A stretch of 64,000 nt of DNA from Bacteroidales bacterium (GCA_012517825.1 JAAYUG010000115.1:827-64826); one strand, 5' to 3'. Shown: positions 31,442 through 51,184, counted from the first letter of the stretch. The notes: generated by a model not told the origin, from the letters alone. Translations and numbers: made by a program.

Positions 31442-31560
31442 GCCTTACTTTTTCTATGGAAAAGACAAAGATATTGTTTCGCACCAAAAACCATTAAGCA
31501 CACGGAATTTTTTGATTTTTTTTGGGAGTTTTGGGCAGTTACAGTATTTTAGTGAAAATT

Positions 31561-33683: not shown

Positions 33684-34769
33684 TTATTTGCCCGGTTGTT
33701 CCCGGGAAAAACCTGAAAACAGCTTGTCGGCTTTTTCCCGAGAAAGCCATTTTCCGGAACAAATGACGATCATATGGTTAAAAACCATTTCCTGGCCCGG
33801 TTTCAGAGTAAAAATCTGTTTTTCTTCCTTTGGATTAAACACCTGCTGTCCGAGGTTATTGACTGCGAAAAGACCATAGCCTCTGGCATGAAAGTGCGCC
33901 GGATACCCCGGATTGGAAGGATGGTCAAACAAGGTGACGGAGACTTTTCTGCCCTGGTTTTCCCCGCACAAGGTAACCCAATTATTGCGTGTGCCCCATA
34001 CTGCATCACCTTCTTTCCCTGAACTGCCGATATAATTTCCCGTAACTCCCGAATTGTCGGCTACAGGAACAGAAGTAATCTTTCCATGCGAATCAGTCAG
34101 CACAACAGGTTCAGTGGAAGGCATTTCCAGAAAACGGGCTACTCTTAAACCCAGCATTCCTTCTTTGTTGTCAGTAAATACCACCGTTTCATTCAGTGCA
34201 CGCAAACGGGTATTGCGTTTAATGATGCGCACTGAATCGCCGGCATCGAATACATACCGGGTTGATTCGTACAGAAGGTCCTTGCCTGTTTCTGTGCGCC
34301 ACACTGCACTGTATGAAAGTGAGGAAGGTTTTCCGTTGCCTGAGGAAACAGCTGGTATTCCCTGAACTACAATTCGCCCGTACTTCGGTTTTTCTTTCGG
34401 TGGTATGGCGTACGAATTATTCCAGAAATCAAATCCATTGACATCTCCATAGTTAAACCAAACCCCTACATGGTGCGGATGATCGGTTCGTTCGCCGGCC
34501 ACCTTTTCAAGCGGAAACGCCCGTGTTATTCTTTGCCCCGACGCATCCAGCACCGGATAAAGAAACGGTTTCTCGAGCGTGTCAGAGTACCAGAAAGCAG
34601 AAAAAAGGTTTTGTCCGCAATAAATTAAAATCTTTGCCTGTGTGGTATCATTGACAAAAGAATACCCCCGATCCTTTAACTTTCCTCCAGAGTTCTGGCA
34701 TGCTGTCATGACCGGAAAAACCATGGTTACGATTAACAAAACTGTTAAAAAGAATATATTGTTTTTCAT
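33684..34769 (-). CDS. PmoA-like (PF14100/DUF6807-type) exported protein
   Basis: Signal/lipobox VMTAC. The DHPHHVGVWFNYGDVNGFDFW motif is typical of this family, which commonly neighbours Gfo/Idh/MocA genes. The family name is from recollection. Confidence 0.6.
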   Translation of the reverse strand: MKNNIFFLTVLLIVTMVFPVMTACQNSGGKLKDRGYSFVNDTTQAKILIYCGQNLFSAFWYSDTLEKPFLYPVLDASGQRITRAFPLEKVAGERTDHPHHVGVWFNYGDVNGFDFWNNSYAIPPKEKPKYGRIVVQGIPAVSSGNGKPSSLSYSAVWRTETGKDLLYESTRYVFDAGDSVRIIKRNTRLRALNETVVFTDNKEGMLGLRVARFLEMPSTEPVVLTDSHGKITSVPVADNSGVTGNYIGSSGKEGDAVWGTRNNWVTLCGENQGRKVSVTLFDHPSNPGYPAHFHARGYGLFAVNNLGQQVFNPKEEKQIFTLKPGQEMVFNHMIVICSGKWLSREKADKLFSGFSREQPGK

Positions 34770-34868
34770 ATGGGTTAATGTTACACACCATCGTTAGGTG
34801 TATCATCTGATGGCTGAATGTTTGGCATTACAGTATAAATTGACAAGGTAAAATCACCGGAAATCAGA

Positions 34869-36218
34869 TCACATGGTGAATACCCTGCCACCGGCCAGCA
34901 CTTCCTGCCGTTCCTCGTCGAAGGTGACTTTTTCTCCGGTATGAAGGGCAGCCGTAACCATGATATTGGCAATTGAATGGTTGTAGGCGGCTACCACATC
35001 TCCGTTGCACTTCCTGCGGCTTCGCAGGCATTCCATCCAGTTGCGCATATGAGCATTTGTCATCGGATCAGCGCCGGTATTGGCACCGGTGACCACTTTC
35101 ATCTGCGGCAGAGATTGTTCTTTCAGCAGATTGGCTTTCATGCCCATAGCCCTGGCTTCACTTTCCTGCAGTCCGCCGTCGGACGTAATTTTGTTCAGAT
35201 CAAGGTTCAGCATTCCTCCATTGGAGAAATACAGTTCCTTGGTGCCGCCATAGGAATTGGTAAAACGGGAGGAGTATACCACCTGGAATCCGCGGGAAGG
35301 ATCATCCAGTGGGCCATAATCGAATACGGCCGTCATGGTATCGGCATTGGCTCTGCCATCTTTCCAGAGGTAAACTCCGCCGTTTGCTGCCACCGAGCGG
35401 GGATGGGGAAGGCCGGTAAACCAGTGCACCGTATCAATCTGGTGCGACATCCACTGGCCGGGAATCCCTGATGAATAGGGCCAGAACAGCCGGTACTCAA
35501 GATAGTACCTTGGATTCCATGGAACATAAGGACGATTGATGAGAAAACGTTTCCAGTCGGTGTCTTCTTCCTTAATGGAGGCTACCAGGTCGGGTCTTCT
35601 CCACCGCCCCGGCTGATTGACATTCCAGGTCATTTCCACCATGACGATATCACCAAACTTACCTGATTGAATAAATTCGGCTGCAGCAATATAATTGTCA
35701 GCCGATCTTCTCTGGGAACCAATCTGGAAGACCCTGTCCGATTCCTGCACGACCTTCAGGGCATTTCTGTTATCTTCCATCGTTTCGGCAAAGGGTTTTT
35801 CCACATAAACATCCCTTCCTGCCTGAACTGCCTCGATGGTATGCATGGCATGCTGGAAATCGGCCGTACTGATAATAACAGCATCCACATCCTTTCTTTC
35901 GTATAACTCCTCATTGTTGCGGGCCAGGGCTACTTTAATCCCCTGTCTGCCAAAGTAGGCCTGCGCTTCTTCTCTCCGGCGACTCCATATGTCAGAAACC
36001 GCTACAATCTCCATATTCAGGTCTTTGGCCGAAGCAAGAAAGGCCGGTATTAGGGATGATCTTGCACGATCAGAGAAGCCAACAATACCAACACGGATAC
36101 GGTCGTTTGCACCTGTAATGCGCTGGTAGGCGCTGGCAGGAAGACTGATGCCCCCCAGGGCGACCCCGGCTGTTCCGGCCGCCATAACTTTTACAAACTT
36201 CCTTCTGTCTGTTTTCAT
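34869..36218 (-). CDS. Tat-exported Gfo/Idh/MocA-family oxidoreductase
   Basis: MKTDRRKFVKVMAAGTAGVALGG twin-arginine signal, RVGIVGFSDRA Rossmann motif and VEKPFA. Confidence 0.85.
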   Translation of the reverse strand: MKTDRRKFVKVMAAGTAGVALGGISLPASAYQRITGANDRIRVGIVGFSDRARSSLIPAFLASAKDLNMEIVAVSDIWSRRREEAQAYFGRQGIKVALARNNEELYERKDVDAVIISTADFQHAMHTIEAVQAGRDVYVEKPFAETMEDNRNALKVVQESDRVFQIGSQRRSADNYIAAAEFIQSGKFGDIVMVEMTWNVNQPGRWRRPDLVASIKEEDTDWKRFLINRPYVPWNPRYYLEYRLFWPYSSGIPGQWMSHQIDTVHWFTGLPHPRSVAANGGVYLWKDGRANADTMTAVFDYGPLDDPSRGFQVVYSSRFTNSYGGTKELYFSNGGMLNLDLNKITSDGGLQESEARAMGMKANLLKEQSLPQMKVVTGANTGADPMTNAHMRNWMECLRSRRKCNGDVVAAYNHSIANIMVTAALHTGEKVTFDEERQEVLAGGRVFTM

Positions 36219-36274
36219 ATTGTATTTGATTAGCAGGTTATTACTTGATAGAACCCAAAATATAGATTTTTCAG

Positions 36275-37669
36275 TTACAGTTGTTTTATCTTGATGCTGC
36301 GGAAGGAGACCTCATCCCCATGATCCTGGAGTAAAATATGCCCCTCGGGTGCTTCGCCGAAGTTTTTCCAGACCTTGTACTTGCTTTCGCTAACCAGTTT
36401 TCTGAATTCAGCTGAACCGCGCTCATATTCAAGAACTTTAAAGCCGTTCAGCCAGTGCTCAACGTGGTTTCCTCTGGAAACAATGCGTGCCTGGTTCCAT
36501 TCACCAGGCGCATTGACCCGTTTGTTAGTGGCCTTGATCAGATCATAAAGGGAGGCAAGAGTTCTGCTTCCTTCATGGTTTCCCAGTTTGGCGTCAGGAT
36601 GGTTTTCATCATCCAGAATCTGGTATTCCAGCCCAATAGCAGAACCTTTGTTGTGTTCCGATTCGGTAACAAAGTATTTTATGCCGCTGTTGGCTCCCCT
36701 GGTAATTTTGAATTCCAGGGTCAGATCAAAGTCAGAATATTTGTCCACGGTAACAATATCGCCTCCATTGGCAGATTCAGCGCCCCCGGAAGGAAGAACT
36801 GTCAGCATGCCATCAGCAATTTTCCATCCTTTTTCAGGGAACTTATCCTTATATGCTCCCCTCCATCCATTGGACGTCTTTCCGTCGAAAAGAAGTTTCC
36901 AGCCATGATTTTTTTCCCAATCGCTCAGCGTATTGGGAATCATGTTCACCTGGCGGATGCCTGGGTCTCCATGAAATCCGTAGAAATCAAGACTGTCGGT
37001 ACGTATTCTGATGTTCCTGAAACGAACCTGAAGCCCAACCTTTGACGCATCATCTCCCACCGAATGTACCTGCAGAGCAATCAATCCTTTGGGAGTGAGG
37101 TTATCCAGCAACCAGGAAGCAGGGACGTCGTTGATCCATGTGCGGATGGTATCACCTATGGCTTCAATCCTGAATTTATTCCATTCTCCCTGCCGGAATG
37201 CGTTACGGGCAGGTTCATTGTCGGCAAGAGTATACAACCAGCCTCTGCGGGATTCATCATATATTCCGCCGGTCCATGCCCTGGGAGAAGGGTCAATCTC
37301 CACCTGGTAACCATGTACCCGGCCGTTCATAACGAGAGGAGAACTGATGCTCCGGATTTGCACGCCGGAATTAAGCTGTGAATCAACTTTGAACTCAAGT
37401 TCAAGAATAAAGTTGTCAAATTCCTTTTCGGTACAAAGAAAACTGTTGGGACTTTTCAGCACGGTGGTTCCCACAATCTCACCGTTTTCAACTTTATATT
37501 CAGCGGTTCCGTTTTTCTGAACCCATCCGCTGAGGTCTTTTCCGTTAAAAAGCTGATACCAGCCAGTTTTTTCAACCGAAGGAGCAGACGAACAGGAAGC
37601 GGCCAGGACAAAGACAACCATTCCGGTTGCTACGACTGTTAATTTCTTGATATTTATAAAGTGCTTCAT
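36275..37669 (-). CDS. Tandem DUF1080 (3-keto-disaccharide-hydrolase-like, concanavalin-like fold) lipoprotein
   Basis: Lipobox LAASC. The pattern W..LFNGK.L.GW.......(W/Y)KVE.G...G occurs twice, and each half ends in ...FRNI(R/K)I.... Confidence 0.8.
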   Translation of the reverse strand: MKHFINIKKLTVVATGMVVFVLAASCSSAPSVEKTGWYQLFNGKDLSGWVQKNGTAEYKVENGEIVGTTVLKSPNSFLCTEKEFDNFILELEFKVDSQLNSGVQIRSISSPLVMNGRVHGYQVEIDPSPRAWTGGIYDESRRGWLYTLADNEPARNAFRQGEWNKFRIEAIGDTIRTWINDVPASWLLDNLTPKGLIALQVHSVGDDASKVGLQVRFRNIRIRTDSLDFYGFHGDPGIRQVNMIPNTLSDWEKNHGWKLLFDGKTSNGWRGAYKDKFPEKGWKIADGMLTVLPSGGAESANGGDIVTVDKYSDFDLTLEFKITRGANSGIKYFVTESEHNKGSAIGLEYQILDDENHPDAKLGNHEGSRTLASLYDLIKATNKRVNAPGEWNQARIVSRGNHVEHWLNGFKVLEYERGSAEFRKLVSESKYKVWKNFGEAPEGHILLQDHGDEVSFRSIKIKQL

Positions 37670-37678
37670 AGAAAATTA

Positions 37679-38557
37679 TTAAGATGTTGTTTGCTTCGCA
37701 ATATATTTTTTGAGCCATTCAAGGAATTCGACGCCAAATTCGGGATGTTTTACACCGTAAATAACATTTGTTTTCAGGAAGTCAATTTTACTGCCAATAT
37801 CATATCGCTGTCCGGCAAAACGGAGTCCGTAGGCAGGCCTGGTCCGAACCATAAGGCGAAGGGCATCGGTGAGCTGAATTTCATTGTTTACGCCCGGAGG
37901 AATGGTGTCAAGGTAATCAAAAATATCAGGTGTAAGAATGTAGCGGCTGGCAATGGCCAGGTTGGAGGGTGCCTTATCGGCCGGTGGTTTTTCGACAAAG
38001 TCGTTGATGAGATAAACATCCCGGTCAATTTCGGTTCCGCTGATAACTCCGTACCGGCTCACAACAGCAGGATCGACCTCTTCCAGAGCAACGACCGGAT
38101 GTTGGTATTTGTCATAAAGTGCTCCAAGCTGGCGGGTTACAGGGCCCTGATCAGAATCAATCAGCGTATCGCCGAGAAGTACGGCAAACGGCTGGCCATT
38201 AACGTGATCGCGGGCATACCGGATCGCATCACCAAGTCCGTTAAGTTCTTTCTGCCACACAAAATGGATATTGGCCATCGAGGTAATTGCGCGGATGGTA
38301 GCAAGCTCATCCGTTTTTCCTTTTTCCATGAGCTGGTTTTCGAGTTCGAAACTCCGGTCAAAATGCTCTTCAATGGCTCGCTTTCCTTTACCGATGATCA
38401 TGAGGATATCGGTAATACCGGATGTAACAGCTTCTTCAACCACATACTGGATTACCGGTGTATCGACCACCGGAAGCATTTCTTTTGGCTGTGATTTTGT
38501 AGCCGGAAGAAACCGGGTACCGAAACCGGCCGCGGGTATTACTGCTTTGGTTATCAT
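37679..38557 (-). CDS. galU: UTP--glucose-1-phosphate uridylyltransferase family (GalU-type nucleotidyltransferase)
   Basis: KAVIPAAGFGTRFLPATKSQPKEMLPVVDTPVIQYVVEEA and VLLGD are canonical GalU motifs. Start at the ATG at 38557. Confidence 0.9.
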   Translation of the reverse strand: MITKAVIPAAGFGTRFLPATKSQPKEMLPVVDTPVIQYVVEEAVTSGITDILMIIGKGKRAIEEHFDRSFELENQLMEKGKTDELATIRAITSMANIHFVWQKELNGLGDAIRYARDHVNGQPFAVLLGDTLIDSDQGPVTRQLGALYDKYQHPVVALEEVDPAVVSRYGVISGTEIDRDVYLINDFVEKPPADKAPSNLAIASRYILTPDIFDYLDTIPPGVNNEIQLTDALRLMVRTRPAYGLRFAGQRYDIGSKIDFLKTNVIYGVKHPEFGVEFLEWLKKYIAKQTTS

Positions 38558-38611
38558 ATTATTACATTTTCCGTGTACGTACACGGAATCAATTGCAATA
38601 TATAAAAAACT

Positions 38612-39616
38612 TCAGATATTATAAACAATGGCGGGTTTTATTACCTGTATTCTGTGCGGTGCCATTGTTTCGACGAGCTGATGGAACATGGAATCTCCCT
38701 CGTAGGTACCAATGACAGCGCCTCCTGAACCGGTAAATTTGGCGGTAGCCCCCACGGAACGGGCCAGTTCAACCATGAGAATATTGCCTTTGCTGATAGG
38801 CATCACCTTTCTTCGAAGGTCGAAATTTTCATTCAGAAGCTGACCGAGGCGGCTTTTCTGGCCGCGCAGGAGGAATTCATAAGCTTTTTCGGTTAGCTCG
38901 CTCCACTGCCTGATGGCATCCAATACCTGAGGATCGCCGGCATGGTATCTTTCCCGGAAGGTATTGTGCACCACTTCAGAACCTTCTGAAAGGTCGGTGC
39001 GATAAGCAATATAGAGATCGGGAAGAAGGGCGGGGTCGAAAGGTTCATATTTTCCGTACCCCTGTTGATCCATGTATTTTTTGTTGAAATCCATATACAC
39101 AGGGCATTCATAGGCCTGAGCCACACGATCCTGAAGTCCTGCTGCTATTTTCAGTTCATCGTTTTCCACACTGAGCACGAGGTTGGCCAGAATGGGCTTT
39201 GGGATAGATACCTCGTAAAAACTCATCAGGGCTTTCATACAGGCTGTAATAATAGCACTTGACCCGGCCAGGCCCAGACCGTATGGAATGTCGGACTGAT
39301 AGCGGACAGTAAAATTCTTTTCCGGCAGTTGAATGCCTTTTGTCAGGCAATAATTGTAGAACACTTTAATGGTGGCTTTGATAAGTCGAATGCCCCCGTA
39401 ATAACCATATGCCTTTACGTCATCGTTCAGTTTCTGGATGTTGCTGTACACGAGTGAATCGTACACAGAAGGCACAATCTCTATCTCAGGCGATTCGTAG
39501 AGCAATACTTCTGCCCTGAAGTTACTGAAAACAAAAGCGATCGTTTTACCAAAGTAACCGTCGGAGGGATTTCCGATGAGAGCAGCACGCGGATAGCTTG
39601 TGGTCTTAATGATCAT
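38612..39616 (-). CDS. GHMP-family sugar-1-kinase, glucuronokinase-like subgroup
   Basis: GNPSDGYFGKTIAF, GYYGGIRL, GLGLAGSSAII (GHMP motif II), AGLQDRVAQAY, NFDLRRKV and KFTGSGGAV. As I recall it, this motif set matches plant-type glucuronokinase. ATGA overlap with the upstream GT2. Confidence 0.75.
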   Translation of the reverse strand: MIIKTTSYPRAALIGNPSDGYFGKTIAFVFSNFRAEVLLYESPEIEIVPSVYDSLVYSNIQKLNDDVKAYGYYGGIRLIKATIKVFYNYCLTKGIQLPEKNFTVRYQSDIPYGLGLAGSSAIITACMKALMSFYEVSIPKPILANLVLSVENDELKIAAGLQDRVAQAYECPVYMDFNKKYMDQQGYGKYEPFDPALLPDLYIAYRTDLSEGSEVVHNTFRERYHAGDPQVLDAIRQWSELTEKAYEFLLRGQKSRLGQLLNENFDLRRKVMPISKGNILMVELARSVGATAKFTGSGGAVIGTYEGDSMFHQLVETMAPHRIQVIKPAIVYNI

Positions 39617-40362
39617 GACAACGGAATAAGATACTGATATTTTTTCAGGCCTGTTTTATGCAGAAAATATTGAAAACTGACCCTGAGTACGCCCAGACCA
39701 TAGACAACACTTCTGCGGAAATTAATGGATGAAGCTTCCTTAAAATATTTTGTAGGACATGTAATTTCAGCAATTTCAAAACCTGCCATAAAAATCTGGG
39801 CTATCATCTGGTTATCGAACACAAAATCATCTGAATTGGCATTATAGTTGACCTTTTCGAGCACACGGCGCGAAAAGGCCCTGTAGCCGGTATGGTATTC
39901 GGAAAGCTTCTGATTCAAAAGGACATTCTGCGCCAACGTAAGAATACGGTTAGCAACGTATTTGTAAAGAGGCATTCCGCCCCTGAGGGCACCTCGGCCC
40001 AGAATGCGCGAACCGAAGACGACATCGTATACTTCGTTGGCAATCAGATAGCACATTGACTGAATCAGGCGGGGTGTGTACTGGTAATCGGGGTGCAGCA
40101 TAACAACGATATCGGAATTCAGCTCAAGAGCCTTGTTGTAACAGGTTTTCTGATTTCCGCCGTACCCTTTGTTTTTTTCGTGGCGAATGATATGACGGAT
40201 TCCAAGGCGTTCCGCTTCCTGTATTGTATTGTCGGTACTATGGTCATCAACCAGAATAACATGATCCACTATATCAAACGGAATCTCCCTGTAGGTTTGT
40301 TCCAGGGTTTTTTCTGCATTATAAGCCGGTAAAACTACGGTAATGACTTTGTTGTTTATCAT
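39613..40362 (-). CDS. Family 2 glycosyltransferase (polyprenyl-phosphate glycosyltransferase, DPM1/ArnC-like)
   Basis: VVLPAYNAEKTL, ILVDDHSTDNT, NKGYGGN and HPDYQY. The size and motifs fit polyprenol-P sugar synthases. Confidence 0.8.
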   Translation of the reverse strand: MINNKVITVVLPAYNAEKTLEQTYREIPFDIVDHVILVDDHSTDNTIQEAERLGIRHIIRHEKNKGYGGNQKTCYNKALELNSDIVVMLHPDYQYTPRLIQSMCYLIANEVYDVVFGSRILGRGALRGGMPLYKYVANRILTLAQNVLLNQKLSEYHTGYRAFSRRVLEKVNYNANSDDFVFDNQMIAQIFMAGFEIAEITCPTKYFKEASSINFRRSVVYGLGVLRVSFQYFLHKTGLKKYQYLIPLS

Positions 40363-40373
40363 GAAGCATTTAA

Positions 40374-42050
40374 TTAATCCGTTGAATTTTGGGAAACAAC
40401 CTGCATAAAAACAAACCCGTTTTTTTCGTACAATACGCGCAACAAAGGGTATAATTTAAGGTATTTTTCCTTTTTGCTGATTTTGGTAACGGCATAAACC
40501 GGAATTCCTGCTTTCCCTTTGTACAATTCCTCCCCGAGTGTGGTAAAATTGCTTTCTTCCGGCATTCTTGCGGCATAGAACAAATTGGCATAGCTTTTAA
40601 AGCCCAGGGTCATAACAAGGCATTTTTCCTTCTGTTTGCTTTTATAAAAATCAATAGCCGCTCTCTGGGAAAAAGCTTCAATGCGGGAAGTGAAGAAGGT
40701 CATTGAAAACCAGGTAAAAGCCAACGTGCCCGCAAGAAGGAGCAATGTTCCCCGCAGGTATTGACGTGTTTTGAGGTGCAGCGAAGCCCATGCTGCACAA
40801 ACAAGCAAAACTGCACCTCCTGCCCATTCGATTCCGGAAAACGTGACATCAGCCTGAAGATTTCCCGCTGCAAAAGGATCTTTTATCCACCCTGTTGCCA
40901 GGAGCCGGGAACGGTTTTGTATCACCAGCATGGCAAGTGCCGGAATCATGGCAAGAATGAGTGACTGTATCCAGAGCCATGTGTGCTGCCAGTGAGGATA
41001 ATTTCTTCTGTTTTCAATGAGGGTATTGACATAATAAGCTGCCAGGAAGGTAAGCGGAAAATAGCAAAGGGAGGAATAATGCACGATTTTTGTTTTTACG
41101 ATGCTAAAAAGAACCAATACAATCCAGAATAAAATCTGCAACCATAAAACAGATTGTTTCTGAAGGGAATTGTCGGTTTCCTGTTTTCCGAACAGCACGG
41201 GAACGGCAAGAACCGATGCCGGAAAAACTCCGAAAAGAAGCACTACCACGTGGTAAAGGAAAAAACCTCCATGTCCGGCATCCTGTGTCGAAAACAATCT
41301 GATCTGATAGCGGATAAATTCCAGAACAAGATTCATATTTCCGTTCACAATCTGCAGGAGAAACCAGAATCCTCCCGTTAAGGCTACAAGAATGAAGTAA
41401 AGAACCACATGCCAGACGGAGGCATTAAGGCGGAACTTATTAAAAGCCAACCACATGATAAAGGTCAGCATCAGAATCAGAACCGCCACCGGGCCTTTGG
41501 TAAGAATAGCGAGGCCTATGGATAAAGCGGAGAAAATCAACATGGGGATACCCTTTTCTTCCTTTCTGCGCTCAAGGAAGAAGATAAGAAACAGAATGCC
41601 TGCGAAAATGAACAAATTGAACCAGGGGTCGATAATACCTGACCTGAAATAAAAAAAAGGCAGCATAGAACCAAGGTACAGAGCGATCCAGAGGATGGCA
41701 AAGCGGGTTGAAAAAATCCGTCGGCCGGCAAACCAGAGGAGAAAGATGGTGCAAACTCCTGCTACGGCATTGGGAAAGCGGGCGGCAAATTCATTTATCC
41801 CGAACAGATGCATAGATAACACCTGCATCCAGATAAACAAAGGGGGTTTTTCCCAGAAAGGCTGATAATTGATGCGTACTGTCAGATAATCGCCCGAAAC
41901 AATCATTTCACGGGCTGATTCGGCAAAATTCACTTCATCCCAGTCGAACAGGTTTACCCGCCCAAGAAACGGGAGAAACAAAGTGAGGGCGAAAAGAGAG
42001 ATCAGAACAGGATACAGGGCGTTCCTGCCCTTAAAAAAGTCAGTCAGCAT
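40374..42050 (-). CDS. ArnT-like polyprenyl-phosphate-sugar-dependent glycosyltransferase (GT83/GT39, PMT_2)
   Basis: Multi-TM protein. LFDWDEVNFAESAREMIVSGDYL...FWEKPPLFIW parallels the ArnT DE.RYAE.SREM...FEKP motif. I chose the start at 42050 (MLTDFF). Confidence 0.8.
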   Translation of the reverse strand: MLTDFFKGRNALYPVLISLFALTLFLPFLGRVNLFDWDEVNFAESAREMIVSGDYLTVRINYQPFWEKPPLFIWMQVLSMHLFGINEFAARFPNAVAGVCTIFLLWFAGRRIFSTRFAILWIALYLGSMLPFFYFRSGIIDPWFNLFIFAGILFLIFFLERRKEEKGIPMLIFSALSIGLAILTKGPVAVLILMLTFIMWLAFNKFRLNASVWHVVLYFILVALTGGFWFLLQIVNGNMNLVLEFIRYQIRLFSTQDAGHGGFFLYHVVVLLFGVFPASVLAVPVLFGKQETDNSLQKQSVLWLQILFWIVLVLFSIVKTKIVHYSSLCYFPLTFLAAYYVNTLIENRRNYPHWQHTWLWIQSLILAMIPALAMLVIQNRSRLLATGWIKDPFAAGNLQADVTFSGIEWAGGAVLLVCAAWASLHLKTRQYLRGTLLLLAGTLAFTWFSMTFFTSRIEAFSQRAAIDFYKSKQKEKCLVMTLGFKSYANLFYAARMPEESNFTTLGEELYKGKAGIPVYAVTKISKKEKYLKLYPLLRVLYEKNGFVFMQVVSQNSTD

Positions 42051-42693
42051 GCTTGAGCAAGTTTCGAAGGTTATTGTCGAACCAGGGTTTTTCAATCCGT
42101 TTTAAAATCATCAACGAAAAAACAACGGAAATGATTCCAAGGAAAGAACCGGCCAGAATATCGATCAGGAAATGCTGCGACAGATATACTCTGGAGTAAG
42201 CCACCGCAAAAGCCATTAAGAGAAAGAAAATCTCCCAATGCCAGCGCCTTGTGATGTGTGCCAGAGCGAAAAACAGAGCAAAAGCGCTGGCACTATGGCC
42301 GGAAGGAAACGAATGACTCCGGAGCATTTTAACCCCGTGAACGATATGGAGGTTGTAAATACCATCAAAAAAGGCAACCGGACGCATGGCCCCGGGGAAA
42401 GCAAAGTTTTTAAGAATCTGTGCGAGCAATCCTGAAATTATGAATGACAGCAGGATCAGAAAAAACCATCGCAACCTGATGAAACTAACCAGGAAGGAAA
42501 GCATGACAATGAACAATCCATTACCCAACAGGGTTAAATACTTAAAAAGCTCATCAGTTAACTGGACATGAAAGGAGGTGGCATAAATATGCGACTGTGC
42601 TTTACCGTATATGAGCAAAAAAGAAAGTGCCACCAATGCAATGAATAGCCAGCCTATGAGGAAAAGTTTCCGGGCAAACAGCAATTTCAGCAT
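42040..42693 (-). CDS. PAP2-family lipid phosphatase (LpxE/LpxF/undecaprenyl-PP-phosphatase-like)
   Basis: The tripartite PAP2 motif is present: K....RP (ILKNFAFPGAMRP), SFPSGHS and SRVYLSQHFLIDILAG. The protein is membrane-embedded. Confidence 0.85.
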   Translation of the reverse strand: MLKLLFARKLFLIGWLFIALVALSFLLIYGKAQSHIYATSFHVQLTDELFKYLTLLGNGLFIVMLSFLVSFIRLRWFFLILLSFIISGLLAQILKNFAFPGAMRPVAFFDGIYNLHIVHGVKMLRSHSFPSGHSASAFALFFALAHITRRWHWEIFFLLMAFAVAYSRVYLSQHFLIDILAGSFLGIISVVFSLMILKRIEKPWFDNNLRNLLKHAD

Positions 42694-42813
42694 ACGGATG
42701 GTTTATGTGAACAGCACAAAAATAGTATATTCCGCGCAAAACAGGAGGTGTCTCAACCTCCTGTGAAATTTTATTTTGGCACAAAACCTATTTGTTCATT
42801 GAATAGCCGGCAG

Positions 42814-43959
42814 TTATTTTCCAGCAGAAAAAACGTATTCAATCGTTTCGTGGAATTTTTCTCCCGGATTCAGTACAACGGACGGAAAGTTTTTCTGATT
42901 GGGCGAATCGGGGAAATGGTGAGGTTCAAGAGCAAGTCCATTCCGAAAGGCATAGATTCCACCGGACTTTCCTTTAGCAGTTCCGTCCATAAAATTTCCG
43001 CTATAGAACTGAATACCGGGTTGGGTTGTCCAGATTTCAAGAATCCTGCCCGTTACCGGCGAATGAAGGCGTGCGGCCAGGCCAAATGATCCGGGAGCTT
43101 TCGACAGAACCCAGTTATGGTCATATCCCTTTCCGTAAAGCAATTGCTGATGCGATTCGTTTATGCGGGCACCAATAGTTTGTGGTTTTCTGAAATCGAA
43201 TGGGGTATTGTCAACCGGCATCAACTCACCGGTAGGGATCAGCGTTGAATCAACGGGAGTAATGGCATCGGCAACCAATGTCAGATCATGGCCGAGAATG
43301 TCTCCTGTTCCTTCTCCATTCAGATTAAAATAGGCATGGTTTGTGAGATTGATAATGGTTTTTTTGTCCGTTTCGGCCTGCATATCAAGCACCAAGCGGT
43401 TGTCGTCCGTAAGTGTATAAAAAACATTCACCGTAAGATTGCCAGGATAGCCTTCCTCCCCGTCTTTTGAAAGGTAAGAAAAGAAAACAGTGTCCCCGTT
43501 CTGCCGGCTATCCCATACATGTTTGTCAAATCCCTTCAGGCCTCCGTGCAGGGTATTTGGACCATTATTGAGGTAAAGGTTATAGGTAACTCCATCGAGG
43601 GCAAATTTCCCTTTGGCAATTCTGTTGGCATAGCGTCCCACAATGCAACCAAGGTACATGTTATCATTGAGGTATTCGTCGAATGTATGGTAGCCCAGCG
43701 TTATATCAGCACGATTTCCGGCTGAATCAGGCGTAATAACCGACAATATCCTGGCGCCGTAATTGGTGAGCCATACTTCCGTTCCCTTGCTGTTTTTCAG
43801 GGTATACAGCTTAATCTCCTTACCGTCAACCAAACGGTGAAATGTTGCTGTATCAAGTGCCGGCAAAGTTGCATTCTGCTTCTGAGAATTGCGGGAGCAA
43901 CTTCCCGATACAAGTGCTAATACCAATAGCGAAAGAAAAAATGCAGGTTGTGATTTCAT
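42814..43959 (-). CDS. galM: Aldose 1-epimerase (galactose mutarotase), exported lipoprotein form
   Basis: Lipobox LVSGSC. GRYANRIAKGKF.LDG..Y.L..NNGPN.LHGG, TNHAYFNL and EPHHFPDSPN. Confidence 0.9.
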   Translation of the reverse strand: MKSQPAFFLSLLVLALVSGSCSRNSQKQNATLPALDTATFHRLVDGKEIKLYTLKNSKGTEVWLTNYGARILSVITPDSAGNRADITLGYHTFDEYLNDNMYLGCIVGRYANRIAKGKFALDGVTYNLYLNNGPNTLHGGLKGFDKHVWDSRQNGDTVFFSYLSKDGEEGYPGNLTVNVFYTLTDDNRLVLDMQAETDKKTIINLTNHAYFNLNGEGTGDILGHDLTLVADAITPVDSTLIPTGELMPVDNTPFDFRKPQTIGARINESHQQLLYGKGYDHNWVLSKAPGSFGLAARLHSPVTGRILEIWTTQPGIQFYSGNFMDGTAKGKSGGIYAFRNGLALEPHHFPDSPNQKNFPSVVLNPGEKFHETIEYVFSAGK

Positions 43960-44216
43960 AGTTATCTGATTATTTATACCATTGCAAATTAAAGGAATTT
44001 CCTTAAAAATATGCGACTGATATTGTTGAATTATTATTCAGTATGGATATTAACCCAAGATTATTCTTTCCTATCAGGTAATTTATTGAGAAAAACCAAA
44101 AAATGCGTTCTTTTGTAGAGGGTCGAAATACGGCATTTTTTAATTAAAAAAATTATCTGCTATTTTAGCGCTTCGTTGCAGAAAGAAAATTGTTGAATAA
44201 TTAACCTGCTTTTGTT

Positions 44217-45380
44217 ATGGATACCAGAACGCTGCTGCAGAATTTCCAATCAGTTTATCCCGACAACCATCATGAGGTGCGCATATATTTCAGTCCGGGG
44301 AGAGTCAATCTCATCGGAGAGCATACAGACTATAACGGGGGGTATGTTTTCCCGTGCGCATTAAGTTTTGGCACGTATCTGGTAATGGCACCGAACGATA
44401 CCAACAAAGTGCAGTTTGCCACCGGCAATTTTGATGTCCGGCACGAGCAAAACGTCAATGCCCTCAACAAAAAAATTGATCAATTATGGATTAACTATCC
44501 CATGGGTGTGATGTATGAATTTATTACGCGGGGTTATGCTATTCCGGGAATTGACCTGTTTTTTTACGGCAATGTTCCCAATGGTGCCGGATTGTCCTCT
44601 TCCGCCTCTATCGAAGTTGTTACTGCCACTGCCTTGAATGACTTCCTTCATGCAAAGATTGGTGGTGTTGATATAGCCTTGTTATGCCAGCACGCTGAAA
44701 ATCATTTTGTTGGGGTTAACTGCGGAATCATGGATCAGTTTGCCTCGGCCATGGGTAAAAAGGACCATGCTATTTATCTGGATTGCAATACGCTGGATTA
44801 CCAGCTGGTACCGCTGGTTCTGAAAGGGTACAAATTGGTGATTGCCAACACCAATAAGCGTCGCGGGCTGGCTGATTCGAAGTACAACGAACGGCGCAGG
44901 GAATGCGACCAGGCAGTGGCCGAAATCAGCCGTGTTAAACCCATCAAATACCTGTGCGAACTAACGGTGGAAGAATTCAATCAGGTGCAGGGAGCCATAA
45001 GCGACGATACGGTAAGGCGCAGGGCACGACATGCCATTTCAGAAAATGAGCGGACAGGAAAAGCTGTTCAATTGCTCCGCGAAGGGGATCTTGCAGGATT
45101 TGGGCAATTGATGAATGCTTCCCATGATTCACTCCGGTATGATTATGAAGTTACCGGCGTTGAACTCGATACGCTTGTTGAAGAAGCAAGAAAAATTCCC
45201 GGAGTGATCGGTTCAAGAATGACCGGAGCCGGATTCGGAGGATGCACTGTGAGCCTGGTTAAAGAAGAAGCGGTAAATGAATTGATTGAAAAGGTTGGAA
45301 AAGGATACCATGCAGTAACCGGTCTGAAGGCTGATTTTTATGTAGCGGAAGTCGGAGACGGTGCAAGGAGAATTCTCTGA
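44217..45380 (+). CDS. galK: Galactokinase
   Basis: GRVNLIGEHTDYNGGYVFPCA, PNGAGLSSSAS, RRRARHAISEN and MTGAGFGGC are canonical GalK signatures. Confidence 0.95.
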   Translation: MDTRTLLQNFQSVYPDNHHEVRIYFSPGRVNLIGEHTDYNGGYVFPCALSFGTYLVMAPNDTNKVQFATGNFDVRHEQNVNALNKKIDQLWINYPMGVMYEFITRGYAIPGIDLFFYGNVPNGAGLSSSASIEVVTATALNDFLHAKIGGVDIALLCQHAENHFVGVNCGIMDQFASAMGKKDHAIYLDCNTLDYQLVPLVLKGYKLVIANTNKRRGLADSKYNERRRECDQAVAEISRVKPIKYLCELTVEEFNQVQGAISDDTVRRRARHAISENERTGKAVQLLREGDLAGFGQLMNASHDSLRYDYEVTGVELDTLVEEARKIPGVIGSRMTGAGFGGCTVSLVKEEAVNELIEKVGKGYHAVTGLKADFYVAEVGDGARRIL

Positions 45381-45390
45381 AGGCCTTCTT

Positions 45391-47250
45391 TCAGGGTATT
45401 ACAAAGCGTGCTGCATAACGAATTTTATTTTCCGTAATCATCAGAACATATACACCGGGTGTCCACTGACTGACATCCAGTTCCAGATGGGATTCGCTGC
45501 TGTCAAATTTCCGGACTATCTGACCCGACAGATTGATTACACTAATTGTACGCCTGGCGTCTTTCAAATAAAAATCCAATGTTACCTTGCCGGCGGCCGG
45601 ATTTGGGTATAAAAGCAGATACTTGCCCGAAGTATCCATTGGAACTACGGTAATTCTGGCCAGCACATCAGATTCTGTATCGGCAGCGATGCCGGTTATA
45701 CGATGGGGAAAATTCATTGCCAGACTCTGTTCTGCCTGATCGATCCTTATCATGATGGTTGAATCACCCCCGGGATAGTAGATTGTGAGAGGAAGCGAAA
45801 AGCGAAAGACAGGAGTCTTTGGTGATGATCCCTGCTGTTGCAAATTCAGCAGTAAATGGTTGCCGATTTGCTGCCATTCAACCTGAACAACCGGATAACC
45901 AAATCCATAATACCACTGATCAAAGAATCCCTGCCAGTCCCTGCCGGTTACCTGCTGAAAGGCATTCATGAAATCGCTTACCGAAGCAACGGAATATTTA
46001 TTCTGCTGCAAATAATACCTCAATGCTTCAAAGAAAAGTGAATCATTGCCTGTCTCTTTCCGGAGCATATGCAAAACGGCTGCCCCTTTTTTGTAACTGA
46101 GATTGTAATTAAAGATGCGGTATACATTGGTCGCTTCTTCCGGCGGGACGTACAGGCTACCTTCGGGCATGGCAAAGGCAAAAGAATGTGCCTGGCTCAT
46201 CCATGCGTTAGCTGATTCTTTTCCTTCAAAATGATCCAGGGCGAGGTATTCACCGTAGGAAGCAAAGCCCTCGTTGAGCCAGATATCGGACCAGGAAGCA
46301 CAGGTCACCATATCGCCAAACCACATATGGAAAAGCTCATGGGAAACAAGAAGAAATCCGAAATTGCTGAGGGTGGTCATAGTCTGATGTTCCATACCTC
46401 CACCCATCGGGGCCAGGCAGTGTCCGTATTTTTCTTCCGGGAAAGGAAAGCCCTTCATCAGAGCAGAAAAATATTCGATAAAATCTTTTGTTCTGTCGAT
46501 CTCTGTTTTGAAATTTTCAAGAATGGAAGGAACATTATAAATGAAATTCACAACCGGCAGTGAATCAGCCATCCCATAGGGCCGGGCAAATATTGTGTAA
46601 TTCTGATAGTTTGCCACCGCTATGGAAATCAGATAATAAGCAATCGGGTAACGGGATTTCCAGTGAAAGCGCAGTCTTTTATCGGGCAGGGTATCGACAC
46701 CGGCAAGGGTACCGTTGGAACCGGCCATGCACCAGGGAGGAACGGTTACCACGACATCTGACGAATCAATTTTGTCAGAAAGAACCTGCTTTGCAGGAAA
46801 CCAGTCACTTGCAGCAAAAGGTTCCGATAGCGTCCAGGTAACAGGAACATTCCATTGCGTATCTTTCCTGTTGGTTATGCCGGAGAAAAAACCGCTTCCT
46901 CCAGCATTTCCGGAATAATGAATTTCAGATTCAGCCAGGGTATTGGCAGGAAAAGGGCCGGAAACGAACAGAAGGTTGTTCTGATGAGACCAGGCAACCG
47001 GAACATGATCTACCAGAACAGAATCGACATGGTATTTTTCCGAAAGCTCAAAGCAGATCCTCTGAACATCCTGGCTGACAATAAAACGGCAGATTGCCTT
47101 GCCTTTGATGAAGGCTGAAGTATCGGAAGCTTCCAGTTCAAGGCGAAGGTATTTGACATCATAACCGGAAGAGTCGGATGCCGGCTCGGCATGAGCTCTG
47201 AATGTAAACAGGAAAGGAGCAAGAATGCATACAAGAAGCCGTACGTCCAT
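45391..47250 (-). CDS. M1-family zinc metallopeptidase with a T9SS C-terminal sorting domain
   Basis: Signal peptide, GGMEHQT (GxMEN-like), HELFHMWFGD...WLNEGFA (HExxH-E), and a C-terminal LYPNPAAGKVTL...GVYVLMI... tail typical of the Por/T9SS CTD. Confidence 0.85.
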   Translation of the reverse strand: MDVRLLVCILAPFLFTFRAHAEPASDSSGYDVKYLRLELEASDTSAFIKGKAICRFIVSQDVQRICFELSEKYHVDSVLVDHVPVAWSHQNNLLFVSGPFPANTLAESEIHYSGNAGGSGFFSGITNRKDTQWNVPVTWTLSEPFAASDWFPAKQVLSDKIDSSDVVVTVPPWCMAGSNGTLAGVDTLPDKRLRFHWKSRYPIAYYLISIAVANYQNYTIFARPYGMADSLPVVNFIYNVPSILENFKTEIDRTKDFIEYFSALMKGFPFPEEKYGHCLAPMGGGMEHQTMTTLSNFGFLLVSHELFHMWFGDMVTCASWSDIWLNEGFASYGEYLALDHFEGKESANAWMSQAHSFAFAMPEGSLYVPPEEATNVYRIFNYNLSYKKGAAVLHMLRKETGNDSLFFEALRYYLQQNKYSVASVSDFMNAFQQVTGRDWQGFFDQWYYGFGYPVVQVEWQQIGNHLLLNLQQQGSSPKTPVFRFSLPLTIYYPGGDSTIMIRIDQAEQSLAMNFPHRITGIAADTESDVLARITVVPMDTSGKYLLLYPNPAAGKVTLDFYLKDARRTISVINLSGQIVRKFDSSESHLELDVSQWTPGVYVLMITENKIRYAARFVIP

Positions 47251-47253
47251 ATC

Positions 47254-50049
47254 CTATGGGTTTCTGGTTGTTCCTGCCGGCAACGGCAAGGCATCCTTAA
47301 CGCATCTGAATCCGACGGTGGCTGAACGGTCAAAACCCGGAGCCACCCTGATGAGGATCTGTCGCTTGTTCACCGGCTGCGGACCACCCTTAATATACCA
47401 TTCGCTTGCATCGGGCCGGAAATAAGAACCGCCCCTGATGACAGAAAAAAGATAGGATCCGTTATCATATTCATCCTCTGTCATCTGCCATACATTGCCC
47501 ACCAGATCCTCGACCTTGAAAGGAGATTTACCTTTCGGGAAAGCGTCAACCGGTGTAGTTACGCCAAAGGCGCTGTTGCATTTGGTGGCGTGAAATTCAT
47601 TCCCCCATGGCCAGGCTCTTCCGTCGGTTCCCTGGGCAGCATACTGCCATTCATGTTCGGTCGGCAGACGTTTTCCTGCCCATCTGGCATAGGCCCTGGC
47701 ATCCTCCATACTAACCCATACAACAGGATGATTTTCCATCCCTCTTGGATACATTCCGTTTGTCCAGTGCCGGAGGTAGCCGGTTGTGTCGGCAGGACGG
47801 TAGCCTGTTTCCTGAATGAACTGGTAAAACTGCTTATTGGTTACAGGGTACCGATCCATGAAAAAGCGGTTCATATCGATCCATACGCTATCAGGTTCCG
47901 GCGGATACGGAATGAATGACTCGTCATGCCATGCTGTATAAAGAAATTTTCCGGCAGGTATCTCAACCATGTCGTTCGGACAGGCAGAAACAGGCTCAGT
48001 TGGTGAAAGCCGGTTAATTTTCCGAATCCATCCCTGAGGAAATTCATACACCATTTCATCAATAAGTTCCTTGTTGTTGAAAAGCTGGAAAATTAACCTT
48101 CCCTGGTAATGCCCGTACTTTTCACAGAAATTGATGTGTAACTGGCCGGCAGGGTATTCATCCGGAGTATTCTGATAGGAAGGCTCATTTTTCCAGATCA
48201 GAAGCCGGTTACCCCGGTCTGCCCTAATGTAAAGAGAATCTCCCGTCCATTCTATTTTTATGGTACGCGGAAAAGAGGCCACACATTCAATACTTCCTTC
48301 GAGGCGGGTATGAAGATTTTCTTTGGGGAAAGGAAGAACCGGCACCGGCAGGTAAAACTGATCGCCAATACGGACAGGTGTCAGTTCCGTATGACTCCAC
48401 AGGCTGACAAAGTGAGTGCCTTCGGTATTCCTTACCGGAAAAAGTGCGCCAGCGTGTCCTCCGGGGATCAATGAAAAGATGGTGAACAAGGTTTTATCCT
48501 CGTTTTCCCAGCGGTTAATGTAAATGCTGTCTCTCAGGGATGCGATAAGGGGAGTGAAGTTTCCCTGCTGAAAGACCTGGCTGTTTTCGCGCAGTATGCG
48601 GGTAGTTTTTCCCAGAAAAAGAAACTCCTCCCCTATCCATTGCGGACGTCCGGGGGCCATGGTGTTGATTTCGGTTCCGTATCCGTTAAAGAAAGAAATG
48701 GCTATTTCGCGACGGATGTGTCCTTCGCTGAGCTGGCATACCCGAAAGATCGCAAAGTCAGGTCTGATGAGCTTGTTCAGGTTCAGTGGCGGCTGATAAT
48801 AGATGGCATCGTGCACTCTTCCCGCAAGAATTCCCTGCATATCCCTTGGCACAGCCATTCCTTCGCTGTACATAATAACGCCGTCACGCACACTGTCGGC
48901 GGCAGCCTGCAGTTCATGGCTTGAACTTCCCCTGGTGTCCAGCACCACCCCGTCGGCTCCAATTGATTTAATCAGGTACGACATTCCCGCGAGCTGATCA
49001 CCATCGCGGGTGCTTTTATCCCAGGGATTATATGAAATAAAAAAACGGGTGCCATTTTGCCTTGCATAATTTGCCAGTTCCTGCAATTTAGGCAACCCGA
49101 ACGGCAAATCAGCATAAAGATCCCACTGATTTCTCTGGTCCAGTCCGAGCCGCGGCCAGGTAGGCCAGAGAGCATAAATATCATACCCTCCGAAATACTT
49201 CTTGCCTTCTTCGAGAAATCCATAAAACGTATACTTTCTGGTCCGGGAATCATAAAAACGCTGGTCCCAGGCAAACTGAACCGTAGCAACATAGGCTGAA
49301 CGAACCCACTGAAGATCTGCCCGTTTATAAAGAGCCTCATCAAACTGCGCCACATCAAAAAGATAGCGGTCATGAAATGCTTTTTTAAGGCCATTTTGCC
49401 ATTCTCCTTCAAAAGGCTCAATAAACAGGGTGTATTCGACGGAAGAACCCGGCGCCAGGATAGTGGAATACCGGCGCAGGACAGCTTCCTCTCCGGAAGT
49501 TCTTCGGGCAAGACCATAGGCAGAGGTTTTTCCGTTCAGATCAATGGAGGAATATCCTAATTCCCAGACATTGTCAGGAAGGGTAACATCGACCGGTCCG
49601 CATCCCGGACGGAATATTTTGGCCCGGGCCAGAGCCGGAGGTCCGGATGCTGTAAGATACAGCCTGTCAGAAGCCGTTCCGAAAGGTACTACATTGGAAA
49701 TCTGAACTGTGTCTGATGAAATATTTTCTATGATCAGAACAGTTTTGTATACCAACCCTCCGGAAGAATCAGATTTCAGGGTAAATTTCAGACTGTGGTT
49801 GTATTCTATGCCCAGATCAGGAGGCAGATTGCTTTTTACCACTGAAGGATCGATGTTTTTGCCATTGAGCAGGCAGGTAAATAACGGCAGGGGCGTTTTT
49901 AACGTATACCGCACGTTGTCAGAGGTTCTGAATTCAGTTATCCGGAAAGGAAAAACATTATCAAAAACCGGAGTGAGGGCGGGTTGCGCCGGCAATAAAG
50001 CATATTTCAGCCAAACCAACACCAGAAAAAGCAAAATTCTTCTGTGCAT
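47254..50049 (-). CDS. Large secreted protein: uncharacterised ~680-aa N-terminal region plus a C-terminal FGE/SUMF1-like domain
   Basis: The signal peptide is followed by a region with TIM-barrel-like stretches (GADGVVLDTRG). The C-terminus has FMDRYPVTNKQF..., HPVVWVSMEDARAYARWAGKRLPTEHEWQYAA and RGGSYF, the FGE-sulfatase fold signature. Confidence 0.7.
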   Translation of the reverse strand: MHRRILLFLVLVWLKYALLPAQPALTPVFDNVFPFRITEFRTSDNVRYTLKTPLPLFTCLLNGKNIDPSVVKSNLPPDLGIEYNHSLKFTLKSDSSGGLVYKTVLIIENISSDTVQISNVVPFGTASDRLYLTASGPPALARAKIFRPGCGPVDVTLPDNVWELGYSSIDLNGKTSAYGLARRTSGEEAVLRRYSTILAPGSSVEYTLFIEPFEGEWQNGLKKAFHDRYLFDVAQFDEALYKRADLQWVRSAYVATVQFAWDQRFYDSRTRKYTFYGFLEEGKKYFGGYDIYALWPTWPRLGLDQRNQWDLYADLPFGLPKLQELANYARQNGTRFFISYNPWDKSTRDGDQLAGMSYLIKSIGADGVVLDTRGSSSHELQAAADSVRDGVIMYSEGMAVPRDMQGILAGRVHDAIYYQPPLNLNKLIRPDFAIFRVCQLSEGHIRREIAISFFNGYGTEINTMAPGRPQWIGEEFLFLGKTTRILRENSQVFQQGNFTPLIASLRDSIYINRWENEDKTLFTIFSLIPGGHAGALFPVRNTEGTHFVSLWSHTELTPVRIGDQFYLPVPVLPFPKENLHTRLEGSIECVASFPRTIKIEWTGDSLYIRADRGNRLLIWKNEPSYQNTPDEYPAGQLHINFCEKYGHYQGRLIFQLFNNKELIDEMVYEFPQGWIRKINRLSPTEPVSACPNDMVEIPAGKFLYTAWHDESFIPYPPEPDSVWIDMNRFFMDRYPVTNKQFYQFIQETGYRPADTTGYLRHWTNGMYPRGMENHPVVWVSMEDARAYARWAGKRLPTEHEWQYAAQGTDGRAWPWGNEFHATKCNSAFGVTTPVDAFPKGKSPFKVEDLVGNVWQMTEDEYDNGSYLFSVIRGGSYFRPDASEWYIKGGPQPVNKRQILIRVAPGFDRSATVGFRCVKDALPLPAGTTRNP

Positions 50050-51077: not shown

Positions 51078-51184
51078 GATAGAATCAGTTTTTTTCCGAG
51101 TCAAAGCTATTAAAATGATATATTTAAAAAAACTAAACGGACTGAAATTTTATTTCATACCTTAGCAGAAATTTAATTCCTGCC

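Follow-up and report, generated by a model that had tools for sequence, protein, structure and literature searches.

Two conserved gene modules, an ArnT-like glycosyltransferase trio and a putative glucuronokinase and GalU-type pair, adjoin in an uncultured Bacteroidales bacterium

In Rhizobium, LpxE/LpxF, RgtD, and RgtE dephosphorylate lipid A and galacturonosylate it through dodecaprenyl-phosphate-galacturonic acid (GalA). Related systems are Francisella FlmF/FlmK with LpxE/LpxF, Bordetella LgmABC, and the enterobacterial Arn pathway. Another route to surface glycans is that of Bacteroides fragilis Fkp, an L-fucokinase/GDP-fucose pyrophosphorylase that feeds them by salvage. The three protein classes of the Rhizobium system, a PAP2 phosphatase, an ArnT-like GT-C glycosyltransferase, and a GT2 polyprenyl-phosphate sugar synthase, are predicted from adjacent genes on a 64,000-nucleotide stretch of DNA from an uncultured Bacteroidales bacterium (GCA_012517825.1 JAAYUG010000115.1:827-64826; G+C content about 45%), here called the window. 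Between positions 37,679 and 42,693 these genes are followed by genes for a GHMP kinase and a GalU-type uridylyltransferase, a combination reminiscent of plant glucuronokinase (GlcAK, EC 2.7.1.43) and UDP-sugar pyrophosphorylase (USP), in that the kinase is likewise paired with a nucleotidyltransferase. Zebrafish has a bifunctional glucuronokinase/putative UDP-glucuronate (UDP-GlcA) pyrophosphorylase, and the two activities reside on one polypeptide in lower animals (PMC3938481). Comparison of the locus with its relatives reveals that the "five-gene operon" is two independently conserved modules, lying side by side in one apparent transcription unit. Neither the trio nor the pair was found as a studied system in bacteria in literature searches.

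All five genes are on the minus strand. PAP2 (42040-42693; PF01569) is the first gene of the unit and overlaps the GT-C gene (40374-42050; PF13231; 558 amino acids from its ATG, with an alternative open TTG upstream at 42095) by 11 nt (42040-42050). An 11-nt gap (ttaaatgcttc) separates GT-C from the GT2 gene (39613-40362; PF00535; 249 amino acids), whose stop codon carries the start of the kinase gene (38612-39616; GHMP_kinases_N) in an ATGA overlap (39613-39616). The GalU-type gene (37679-38557 from its ATG, with an alternative open GTG upstream at 38584; TIGR01099) follows after a 54-nt gap. Open reading frames (ORFs), Pfam, NCBIfam, and the junction sequences agree with the genes, domains, and spacings given in an initial annotation made from the sequence alone. 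Its remark that the locus has no UDP-sugar-modifying enzymes also holds, as the sequence flanking the five genes, about 10 kb in each direction, encodes none.

The initial annotation had read the five genes as one operon and had named a gene order that is not conserved as an outcome speaking against its reading; this is largely what the relatives show, and the five genes are not a single conserved cassette. Kinase loci were taken from a scan of one genome per GTDB species, which returned at least 583 relatives, and the best 80 loci (17-kb loci) were examined; counts anchored on GT-C refer to 40 of 80 metagenome loci, those with at least 1.5 kb on both sides; taxonomic labels of bins are those of the depositors. 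GT2 and GT-C lie directly upstream of the kinase and GalU-type pair in 5 of the 63 kinase-anchored loci with enough upstream sequence, and a kinase gene is also near GT-C in a single GT-C-anchored locus (1/40), which is the window's own contig. The five-gene order was found in L001, L002, L003, L005, L006, L046, L084, L086, and L110 (the L003 contig ends before GalU, and L110 is partial), all within a small Bacteroidales clade. Gene order is thus conserved within this narrow clade and not elsewhere, and the salvage-fed lipid modification envisaged earlier would be a lineage-specific junction, not a conserved cassette. Where both modules are present, the pair always lies 3' of GT2 in the same orientation, and the spacing from GT2 to the kinase is 0-150 nt. 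The ATGA overlap in the window suggests co-expression. This arrangement is suggestive of a shared transcript and possibly of a shared pathway, in which UDP-GlcA from salvage would be used by GT2; direct coupling of the two modules is plausible but unproven.

The PAP2 protein scores 71.7 bits on PF01569, and the catalytic motifs PSGH and SRX5HX3D are intact in its translation. Among solved structures, it is closest to Aquifex LpxE (6ebu, E 1.3e-10). NCBIfam matches to SepP, YbjG-type, PgpB, and LpxE families are all far below their cutoffs (21.6 bits against a cutoff of 177 for LpxE), with undecaprenyl-diphosphatases scoring above LpxE. The GT-C protein scores 66.6 bits on PMT_2 (PF13231). ArnT is both its sole NCBIfam match (NF009784; E 7.7e-30, 104 bits against a cutoff of 567) and its sole sequence match in the PDB by phmmer (5ezm, E 3.9e-14). 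An AlphaFold model of the protein (predicted local distance difference test 84.5, predicted template-modeling score 0.87) was matched by Foldseek to ArnT 5f15/5ezm over the full length (template-modeling score (TM) 0.73-0.75, E 2e-16), followed by AglB (TM 0.52), while Pmt1, Pmt2, and Pmt4 aligned only partially (TM 0.30-0.47, E 3e-4 or worse).

The motif DEVNFAESAREM is present in GT-C, and D36, D38, E39, R47, and E48 are invariant in 35 homologues. Equally invariant in these homologues are D38/E39, E67/K68, D141, and Y325, which align to ArnT D55/E56, E84/K85, D158, and Y345, while ArnT R270 aligns one residue off the near-invariant R251. D158 of ArnT, the counterpart of D141, counts among its catalytic and carrier-phosphate residues. 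The residues D55/E56, E84/K85, and Y345 of ArnT have described roles as catalytic and carrier-phosphate residues (PMC7801869). Judged by sequence and predicted fold, the GT-C protein is ArnT-like and not ArnT, the curated equivalog cutoff being missed.

The GT2 protein scores 78 bits on PF00535. Its top NCBIfam matches are AglJ, PpgS, and dolichyl-phosphate (Dol-P)-hexose transferase, all below cutoff, and its top PDB matches are a Pyrococcus Dol-P-mannose synthase (5mlz, E 4.7e-10) and then ArnC. The protein is short and of soluble type, lacks C-terminal transmembrane helices, and is predicted to be a polyprenyl-phosphate sugar synthase of the PpgS/DPM1/AglJ type. It is 65-78% identical in loci whose GT-C proteins are only 39-50% identical. 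The enzyme types first assigned to the trio, a PAP2 phosphatase, an ArnT-like GT-C bearing the above motif (written DE..FAESAREM there), and a GT2 that loads a sugar onto polyprenyl phosphate, are supported by the LpxE relative, by the GT-C sequence and predicted fold, and by the best GT2 matches, which are all polyprenyl-phosphate glycosyltransferases. Compared with the arn/lgm/flm/rgt class, the trio is alike in predicted topology, logic, and ArnT-type catalytic residues. It differs in that its genes are tightly clustered and PAP2 and GT-C are once fused (see below), that its 249-residue GT2 is of the PpgS/DPM1 type and not ArnC-like, that flippase, deacetylase, and UDP-sugar-modifying genes are missing from the locus, that its proteins score below the ArnT and LpxE equivalog cutoffs, and that its host belongs to the Bacteroidales.

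Relatives of the GT-C protein, about 50% identical, number in the thousands in Bacteroidales bins. Among the 80 metagenome loci, GT2 and PAP2 genes accompany GT-C in several orders and orientations. A GT2 gene lies within 3 kb of GT-C in 19/40 loci and a PAP2 gene within 1 kb in 17/40; one or the other is near in 28/40, and both are near in 8/40. Most metagenome loci have the trio genes without the kinase and GalU-type pair, and the PAP2-GT-C-GT2 set without the pair was also found in L081 (a complete 3.5-Mb genome), L082, and L083. In L083, a 7.8-kb JGI contig, PAP2 and GT-C form a single 768-amino-acid ORF (P0216; 385-2691) with GT2 next to it. The linkage of the three genes in several orders, together with this fusion, suggests that the trio is a functional unit. 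Neighborhood clustering of the 80 metagenome loci showed no nucleotide-sugar genes recurring beside GT-C. Similarly, flippase and sugar-tailoring genes (ArnA/B/D/E/F, LgmC, NaxD, UDP-GlcA epimerase) were absent within about 10 kb of the window locus, and none recur in the 80 GT-C loci. No trio of this kind was found as the subject of a Bacteroidota study in literature searches.

Only a 2-oxoglutarate (2OG)-Fe(II) oxygenase (12 loci) and MazG (9 loci) recurred in this clustering. The oxygenase gene (PF13640) directly adjoins GT-C in L106, L107, L109, L121, L122, L124, L125, L128, L129, L131, L137, and L148, which belong to lineages where PAP2 or GT2 is often not adjacent. A GFO/IDH/MocA - ApbE - GFO/IDH/MocA gene set occurs near the trio in the window (29229-32616) and immediately after it in L083 (3417-6550). 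The recurrence reflects conserved synteny or else a functional link, in which ApbE would flavinylate periplasmic proteins. The trio of L082 has galT as its divergent neighbor.

The kinase scores 45.5 bits on GHMP_kinases_N and is 43% identical over 306 amino acids (E 4e-83) to P0242, named "putative glucuronokinase [Arabidopsis thaliana]" at NCBI; P0242 was found with an Arabidopsis GlcAK sequence as the query, to which it is 99% identical. Characterization of the Arabidopsis glucuronokinase has been reported (PMC2823444). Similarity to other GHMP clades is far weaker. Identity to the window's own galactokinase, whose gene is 5 kb away, is 20% (E 8e-8); the best match among solved structures, which include no GlcAK that we found, is the heptose kinase HddA (1e-10); and NCBIfam matches to mevalonate kinase (53.7 bits), heptose-7-phosphate kinase, and GalK are weak and sub-threshold. 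Identity to the plant enzyme is 39-47% for 70 bacterial homologues encoded at the loci retrieved, many close homologues carry the JGI label "glucuronokinase," and the family is compact, with 468 cluster representatives (50% identity) at E<=1e-30. By sequence, the kinase is a member of the plant-type glucuronokinase clade, as the initial annotation had proposed from its motifs, does not fall in a non-sugar GHMP clade, and is predicted to be an anomeric sugar-1-kinase. Literature searches returned no characterized bacterial glucuronokinase.

The kinase and its GalU-type partner are an old and widespread unit. The best 80 kinase loci, with kinases 57-66% identical, come from Bacteroidota, Planctomycetota, Verrucomicrobiota, Kiritimatiellia, Lentisphaerae, a Leptospirales-labelled bin, and a Chitinivibrionales-labelled bin, and a GalU-type gene is directly downstream of the kinase in 70/72 species-representative loci whose downstream sequence extends for 1 kb or more. 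In P0396 (626 amino acids), a GalU-type domain that carries the GLGD signature of the subfamily described below (35% identical to the window GalU, E 2e-42) is fused to the kinase (42%, E 1e-88). On the evidence of this adjacency and fusion, the kinase and the GalU-type gene are functionally tied. A zebrafish-type N-terminal pyrophosphorylase (nucleotidyltransferase) domain is carried by 33 of the 150 best kinase-family representatives. We considered homology between this domain and the window GalU and rejected it, since BLASTP of the latter against P0387 and P0389 gave no significant similarity; the eukaryotic fusion is thus analogous to the pair and not orthologous. From these comparisons, the pair most likely does in bacteria with two genes what the glucuronokinase route does in plants and the fused glucuronokinase/pyrophosphorylase does in lower animals, with the difference that the bacterial partner is GalU-type, neither plant USP nor the zebrafish-type N-terminal domain. 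Fkp would be a parallel to the pair, as in it a GHMP anomeric kinase and a pyrophosphorylase allow a member of the Bacteroidales to pass a scavenged sugar directly to surface glycoconjugates; it differs in belonging to another kinase clade, in using GDP and not UDP, in being fused, and in having no linked GT-C/PAP2 genes.

Genes of galactose metabolism occur around several of these loci. In the window, galM and galK flank the unit (42814-45380), and a second aldose 1-epimerase gene is 7 kb off (50058-51104). In Prolixibacteraceae (L008, L013, L015, and others), the pair is a few kb from galK-like, galM, and galT genes and from genes for a regulator and an MFS sugar transporter; where the window has the trio, these loci have an acyl-CoA synthetase gene.

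The GalU-type protein scores 348 bits on TIGR01099, above the cutoff of 326.8, and its best PDB match is Bacillus subtilis YngB (E 6.8e-87). It is formally a GalU by score, yet the sequences place it in a distinct kinase-linked subfamily. Across 65 kinase-linked copies, T33, I55, W101, D110, G244, and T263 are present in at least 85%, and T131 (consensus LLGDT) in at least 90%. Canonical GalU proteins have K, T, R, H, and D or V at positions 33, 55, 101, 110, and 131, so that kinase-linked and canonical motifs read VDTP/VDKP, IIG/VTG, VWQ/VRQ, GLGD/GLGH, and LLGDT/LLGDD, in a comparison with four canonical sequences only, three from PDB alignments and the fourth being E. coli GalU. T131 is at the position of YngB Asp134, which, like the equivalent Asp131 of PaUGP, contacts the glucose moiety (PMC7961091, PMC11796359). 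Of the YngB glucose contacts D134, G172, E191, and V204, the window protein keeps G170, E189, and I202, and D134 is replaced by Thr131 in at least 90% of the kinase-linked copies. Klebsiella GalU has a non-essential Val at this position and is active (PMC7961091, PMC11796359). We considered an electrostatic rationale for the binding of glucuronic acid (GlcA)-1-phosphate in this subfamily and rejected it, as the changes from R to W and from H to D add no positive charge.

In eight loci (L004, L014, L017, L064, L065, L073, L079, and L080), mostly from Planctomycetes, with one Opitutia bin and one Chitinivibrionales bin, a short-chain dehydrogenase/reductase (SDR) epimerase gene is directly downstream of the pair. 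In the PDB, this epimerase is most similar to 5u4q, which was deposited as a dTDP-glucose dehydratase, and then to 6zl6 (E 1.7e-60), the Bacillus cereus UDP-glucuronate 4-epimerase, both ahead of GalE enzymes; NCBIfam identifies the epimerase that follows the pair in Planctomycetes only as a generic SDR. The product of the GalU-type enzyme may not be UDP-glucose, given T131, W101, and D110 and the epimerase gene next to the pair in the eight loci. The subfamily residues and the following epimerase point to a UDP-hexuronate product, although they are not proof of it.

These observations can be combined in a model in which the trio would dephosphorylate and glycosylate an envelope lipid with a sugar supplied by UDP-glucuronate salvage. 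The kinase would convert free hexuronate, probably D-glucuronate, to the sugar-1-phosphate, and the GalU-type enzyme would turn this into the UDP-sugar. In this Bacteroidales lineage, where the pair directly follows GT2 and the two adjoining genes overlap (ATGA), GT2 could plausibly use the UDP-sugar of the pair as its donor. GT2 would then make the polyprenyl-phosphate sugar at the cytoplasmic face of the membrane, which would flip to the periplasmic face. PAP2 would free a position on an envelope lipid, most likely lipid A, and GT-C would move the sugar onto that position at the periplasmic face. GT-C reactions release polyprenyl monophosphate, so the adjacent phosphatase would suit preparation of the acceptor better than recycling of the carrier, as in the Rhizobium LpxE/LpxF-RgtD-RgtE system and its relatives. 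In lipid A of Echinicola, a member of the Bacteroidota, D-GalA on the non-reducing glucosamine replaces the 4'-phosphate, and the paper describing this structure leaves the biosynthetic genes to future studies (PMC8707317). Indirect evidence for lipid A as the acceptor comes from this precedent in the phylum, from the linkage of GT-C to PAP2, and from the one fusion. Of the explanations considered we favor the coupled model, though tentatively and with confidence that falls short of even. Its most specific form is unlikely taken as a whole, namely that the trio replaces a lipid A phosphate with hexuronic acid in some Bacteroidota and that the donor comes from scavenged glucuronate through a bacterial glucuronokinase and a GalU-derived UDP-glucuronate pyrophosphorylase.

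Several observations weigh against the coupled model. With adjacency in 5/63 kinase-anchored and 1/40 GT-C-anchored loci, the coupling is not general, and the pair's neighbors in other phyla are mostly housekeeping genes, which fits a general nucleotide-sugar supply equally well. GT-C and PAP2 score far below the ArnT and LpxE equivalog cutoffs, so that lipid A is only a putative acceptor, and the locus contains no epimerase, UDP-glucose dehydrogenase, flippase, or deacetylase gene. The GalU-type protein passes the GalU cutoff, is closest to YngB, a proven UDP-glucose pyrophosphorylase, and keeps E189, K190, G170, and all catalytic residues; moreover, R101W removes a positive charge and H110D adds a negative one, so that an anionic sugar is not obviously favored. 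Finally, the fusion proteins are each a single database entry, for which a gene-calling or sequencing artefact is possible (for P0216 also a frameshift or assembly artefact).

The modules might instead be unrelated neighbors, the pair being a general cytoplasmic supply of UDP-GlcA or UDP-glucose for many glycans (for example, the GlcA-containing core of Bacteroidota protein O-glycans or a capsule) and the trio using another sugar, for example a hexose like mannose or glucose. Across phyla the pair is conserved amid housekeeping genes with no trio nearby, most loci with the trio lack the pair, and the closest characterized relatives of GT2 make polyprenyl-phosphate-hexose or polyprenyl-phosphate-N-acetylhexosamine and not hexuronates. 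UDP-GlcA is also needed elsewhere, as Bacteroidota O-glycans share a mannose/rhamnose/GlcA core (PMC12871550). Against this stand the constant order, direction, and 0-150-nt spacing in the clade that has both modules, the ATGA overlap in the window, and the fact that the trio has no further nucleotide-sugar gene beside it in any of the arrangements seen. We regard this explanation as nearly as good as the coupled model and as a substantial possibility. A different role for the donor enzyme is improbable, in which the GalU-type protein is an ordinary UDP-glucose pyrophosphorylase, the trio carries out Gtr/CsbB-YfhO-like glucosylation of lipopolysaccharide or another periplasmic acceptor with glucose borne on polyprenyl phosphate, and the kinase supplies hexose-1-phosphate or acts on another sugar. 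The TIGR01099 score, the best PDB matches to proven UDP-glucose pyrophosphorylases, and the retained catalytic and sugar-contact residues E189, K190, G170, and D130 all fit this role, and there is a precedent in envelope glycosylation, as B. subtilis YngB supplies UDP-glucose for decorating wall teichoic acid with glucose and for glycolipid formation (PMC7961091). However, the kinase groups with glucuronokinase and with no hexose-1-kinase, the kinase-linked GalU proteins differ from canonical ones at conserved sites that include the glucose-contacting Asp, and a UDP-GlcA-4-epimerase-like gene follows the pair in the eight loci.

GT2 and GT-C might instead belong to the core of Bacteroidota protein O-glycosylation, as a polyprenyl-phosphate-mannose synthase and an O-mannosyltransferase resembling the PMT enzymes, with the pair providing UDP-GlcA for the core GlcA. 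A 2025 review describes this pathway as resembling eukaryotic O-mannosylation, with its core-glycan machinery, oligosaccharyltransferase, and ligase unidentified (PMC12871550), and literature searches returned no identified Bacteroidota O-mannosyltransferase. The assignment of GT-C to Pfam PMT_2, with some homologues also matching PF02366, the Dol-P-mannose synthase as the best solved relative of GT2, and the unusually high conservation of GT2 (65-78% identity) are in line with such a role. The GT-C fold speaks against it, matching ArnT over its full length and PMT1, PMT2, and PMT4 only in part, as do the phmmer search of the PDB, which returned ArnT and no PMT, and the absence of a MIR domain by Pfam. 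In addition, the recurrent PAP2 link, with its one fusion, has no part in O-mannosylation. We consider this the most improbable of the explanations weighed here.

With regard to transcription, the unit probably begins at PAP2. A Bacteroidetes-type -7 promoter motif, TAnnTTTG (TATTTTTG; 42717-42724, minus strand), was read from the sequence upstream of PAP2; its last base (42717) precedes the A of the PAP2 start codon (ATG) by 23 nt. Downstream of galM, a hairpin with a 9-bp stem followed by TTTTG (42741-42764, minus strand) is a likely terminator that divides galM from the PAP2 unit. Together with the tight gene spacing, the promoter motif and this hairpin are in keeping with an operon. A scan for sigma-70 promoters and intrinsic terminators gave counts not above the shuffled expectation, with a model ill-suited to Bacteroidota promoters, and only the hairpin after galM was used from it. 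An Rfam scan of the whole window gave no matches. The spacer between the kinase and GalU-type genes contains a 20-bp perfect palindrome (TTCCGTGTACGTACACGGAA; 38569-38588, no strand assigned), which could be an operator or an RNA hairpin and is kept only in the nearest relatives, L001, L084, and L110. L001 is the nearest species-representative locus, with a kinase 95% identical to that of the window, and L084 (JGI contig Ga0078972_1000179) is 99-100% identical across the region. The same spacer in L001 has an extra insertion of ~170 nt bearing an inverted repeat with 12-bp arms.

The run of genes on the minus strand goes on past GalU. A gene for a tandem DUF1080 (3-keto-disaccharide hydrolase family) lipoprotein (36275-37669; PF06439 x2, 314 bits) starts 9 nt after the GalU stop and is probably co-transcribed with it. 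The same gene is 3' of GalU in L001, L005, L046, and L086, so the conserved block of the clade comprises at least six genes. It is followed by a gene for a GFO/IDH/MocA protein with a twin-arginine translocation signal and then by a DUF6807 gene, all co-directional (33684-37669, minus strand). From their family assignments, these three proteins look like periplasmic glycoside-oxidation enzymes. The GFO/IDH/MocA protein has a weak match to the BT_2158 glycoside 3-dehydrogenase family. Farther upstream, the minus-strand region 45391-50049 encodes an M1-family peptidase that carries a C-terminal sorting domain for type IX secretion, as well as a 931-amino-acid protein whose only recognized part is a C-terminal FGE-sulfatase (formylglycine-generating enzyme-like) domain.

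The locus illustrates that genes as tightly packed and overlapping as those of an "operon" can have been joined, within one lineage, from two older modules. Should the modules be mere neighbors, the kinase and GalU-type pair would still merit biochemical characterization. If the assignments are correct, it would represent a bacterial equivalent of the UDP-glucuronate salvage of plants and lower animals, widespread among Bacteroidota, Planctomycetota, Verrucomicrobiota, Kiritimatiellia, and Lentisphaerae. Its GalU subfamily, with a possibly changed sugar specificity, would be of use in making UDP-GlcA enzymatically, for which the papers returned by literature searches rely on the Arabidopsis kinase. 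The trio would provide candidate genes for the hexuronosylated lipid A of Bacteroidota that has been described chemically in Echinicola (PMC8707317). If the most specific form of the coupled model is true, polysaccharide foraging in these Bacteroidales would be linked to the charge of the outer membrane and to resistance to cationic peptides.

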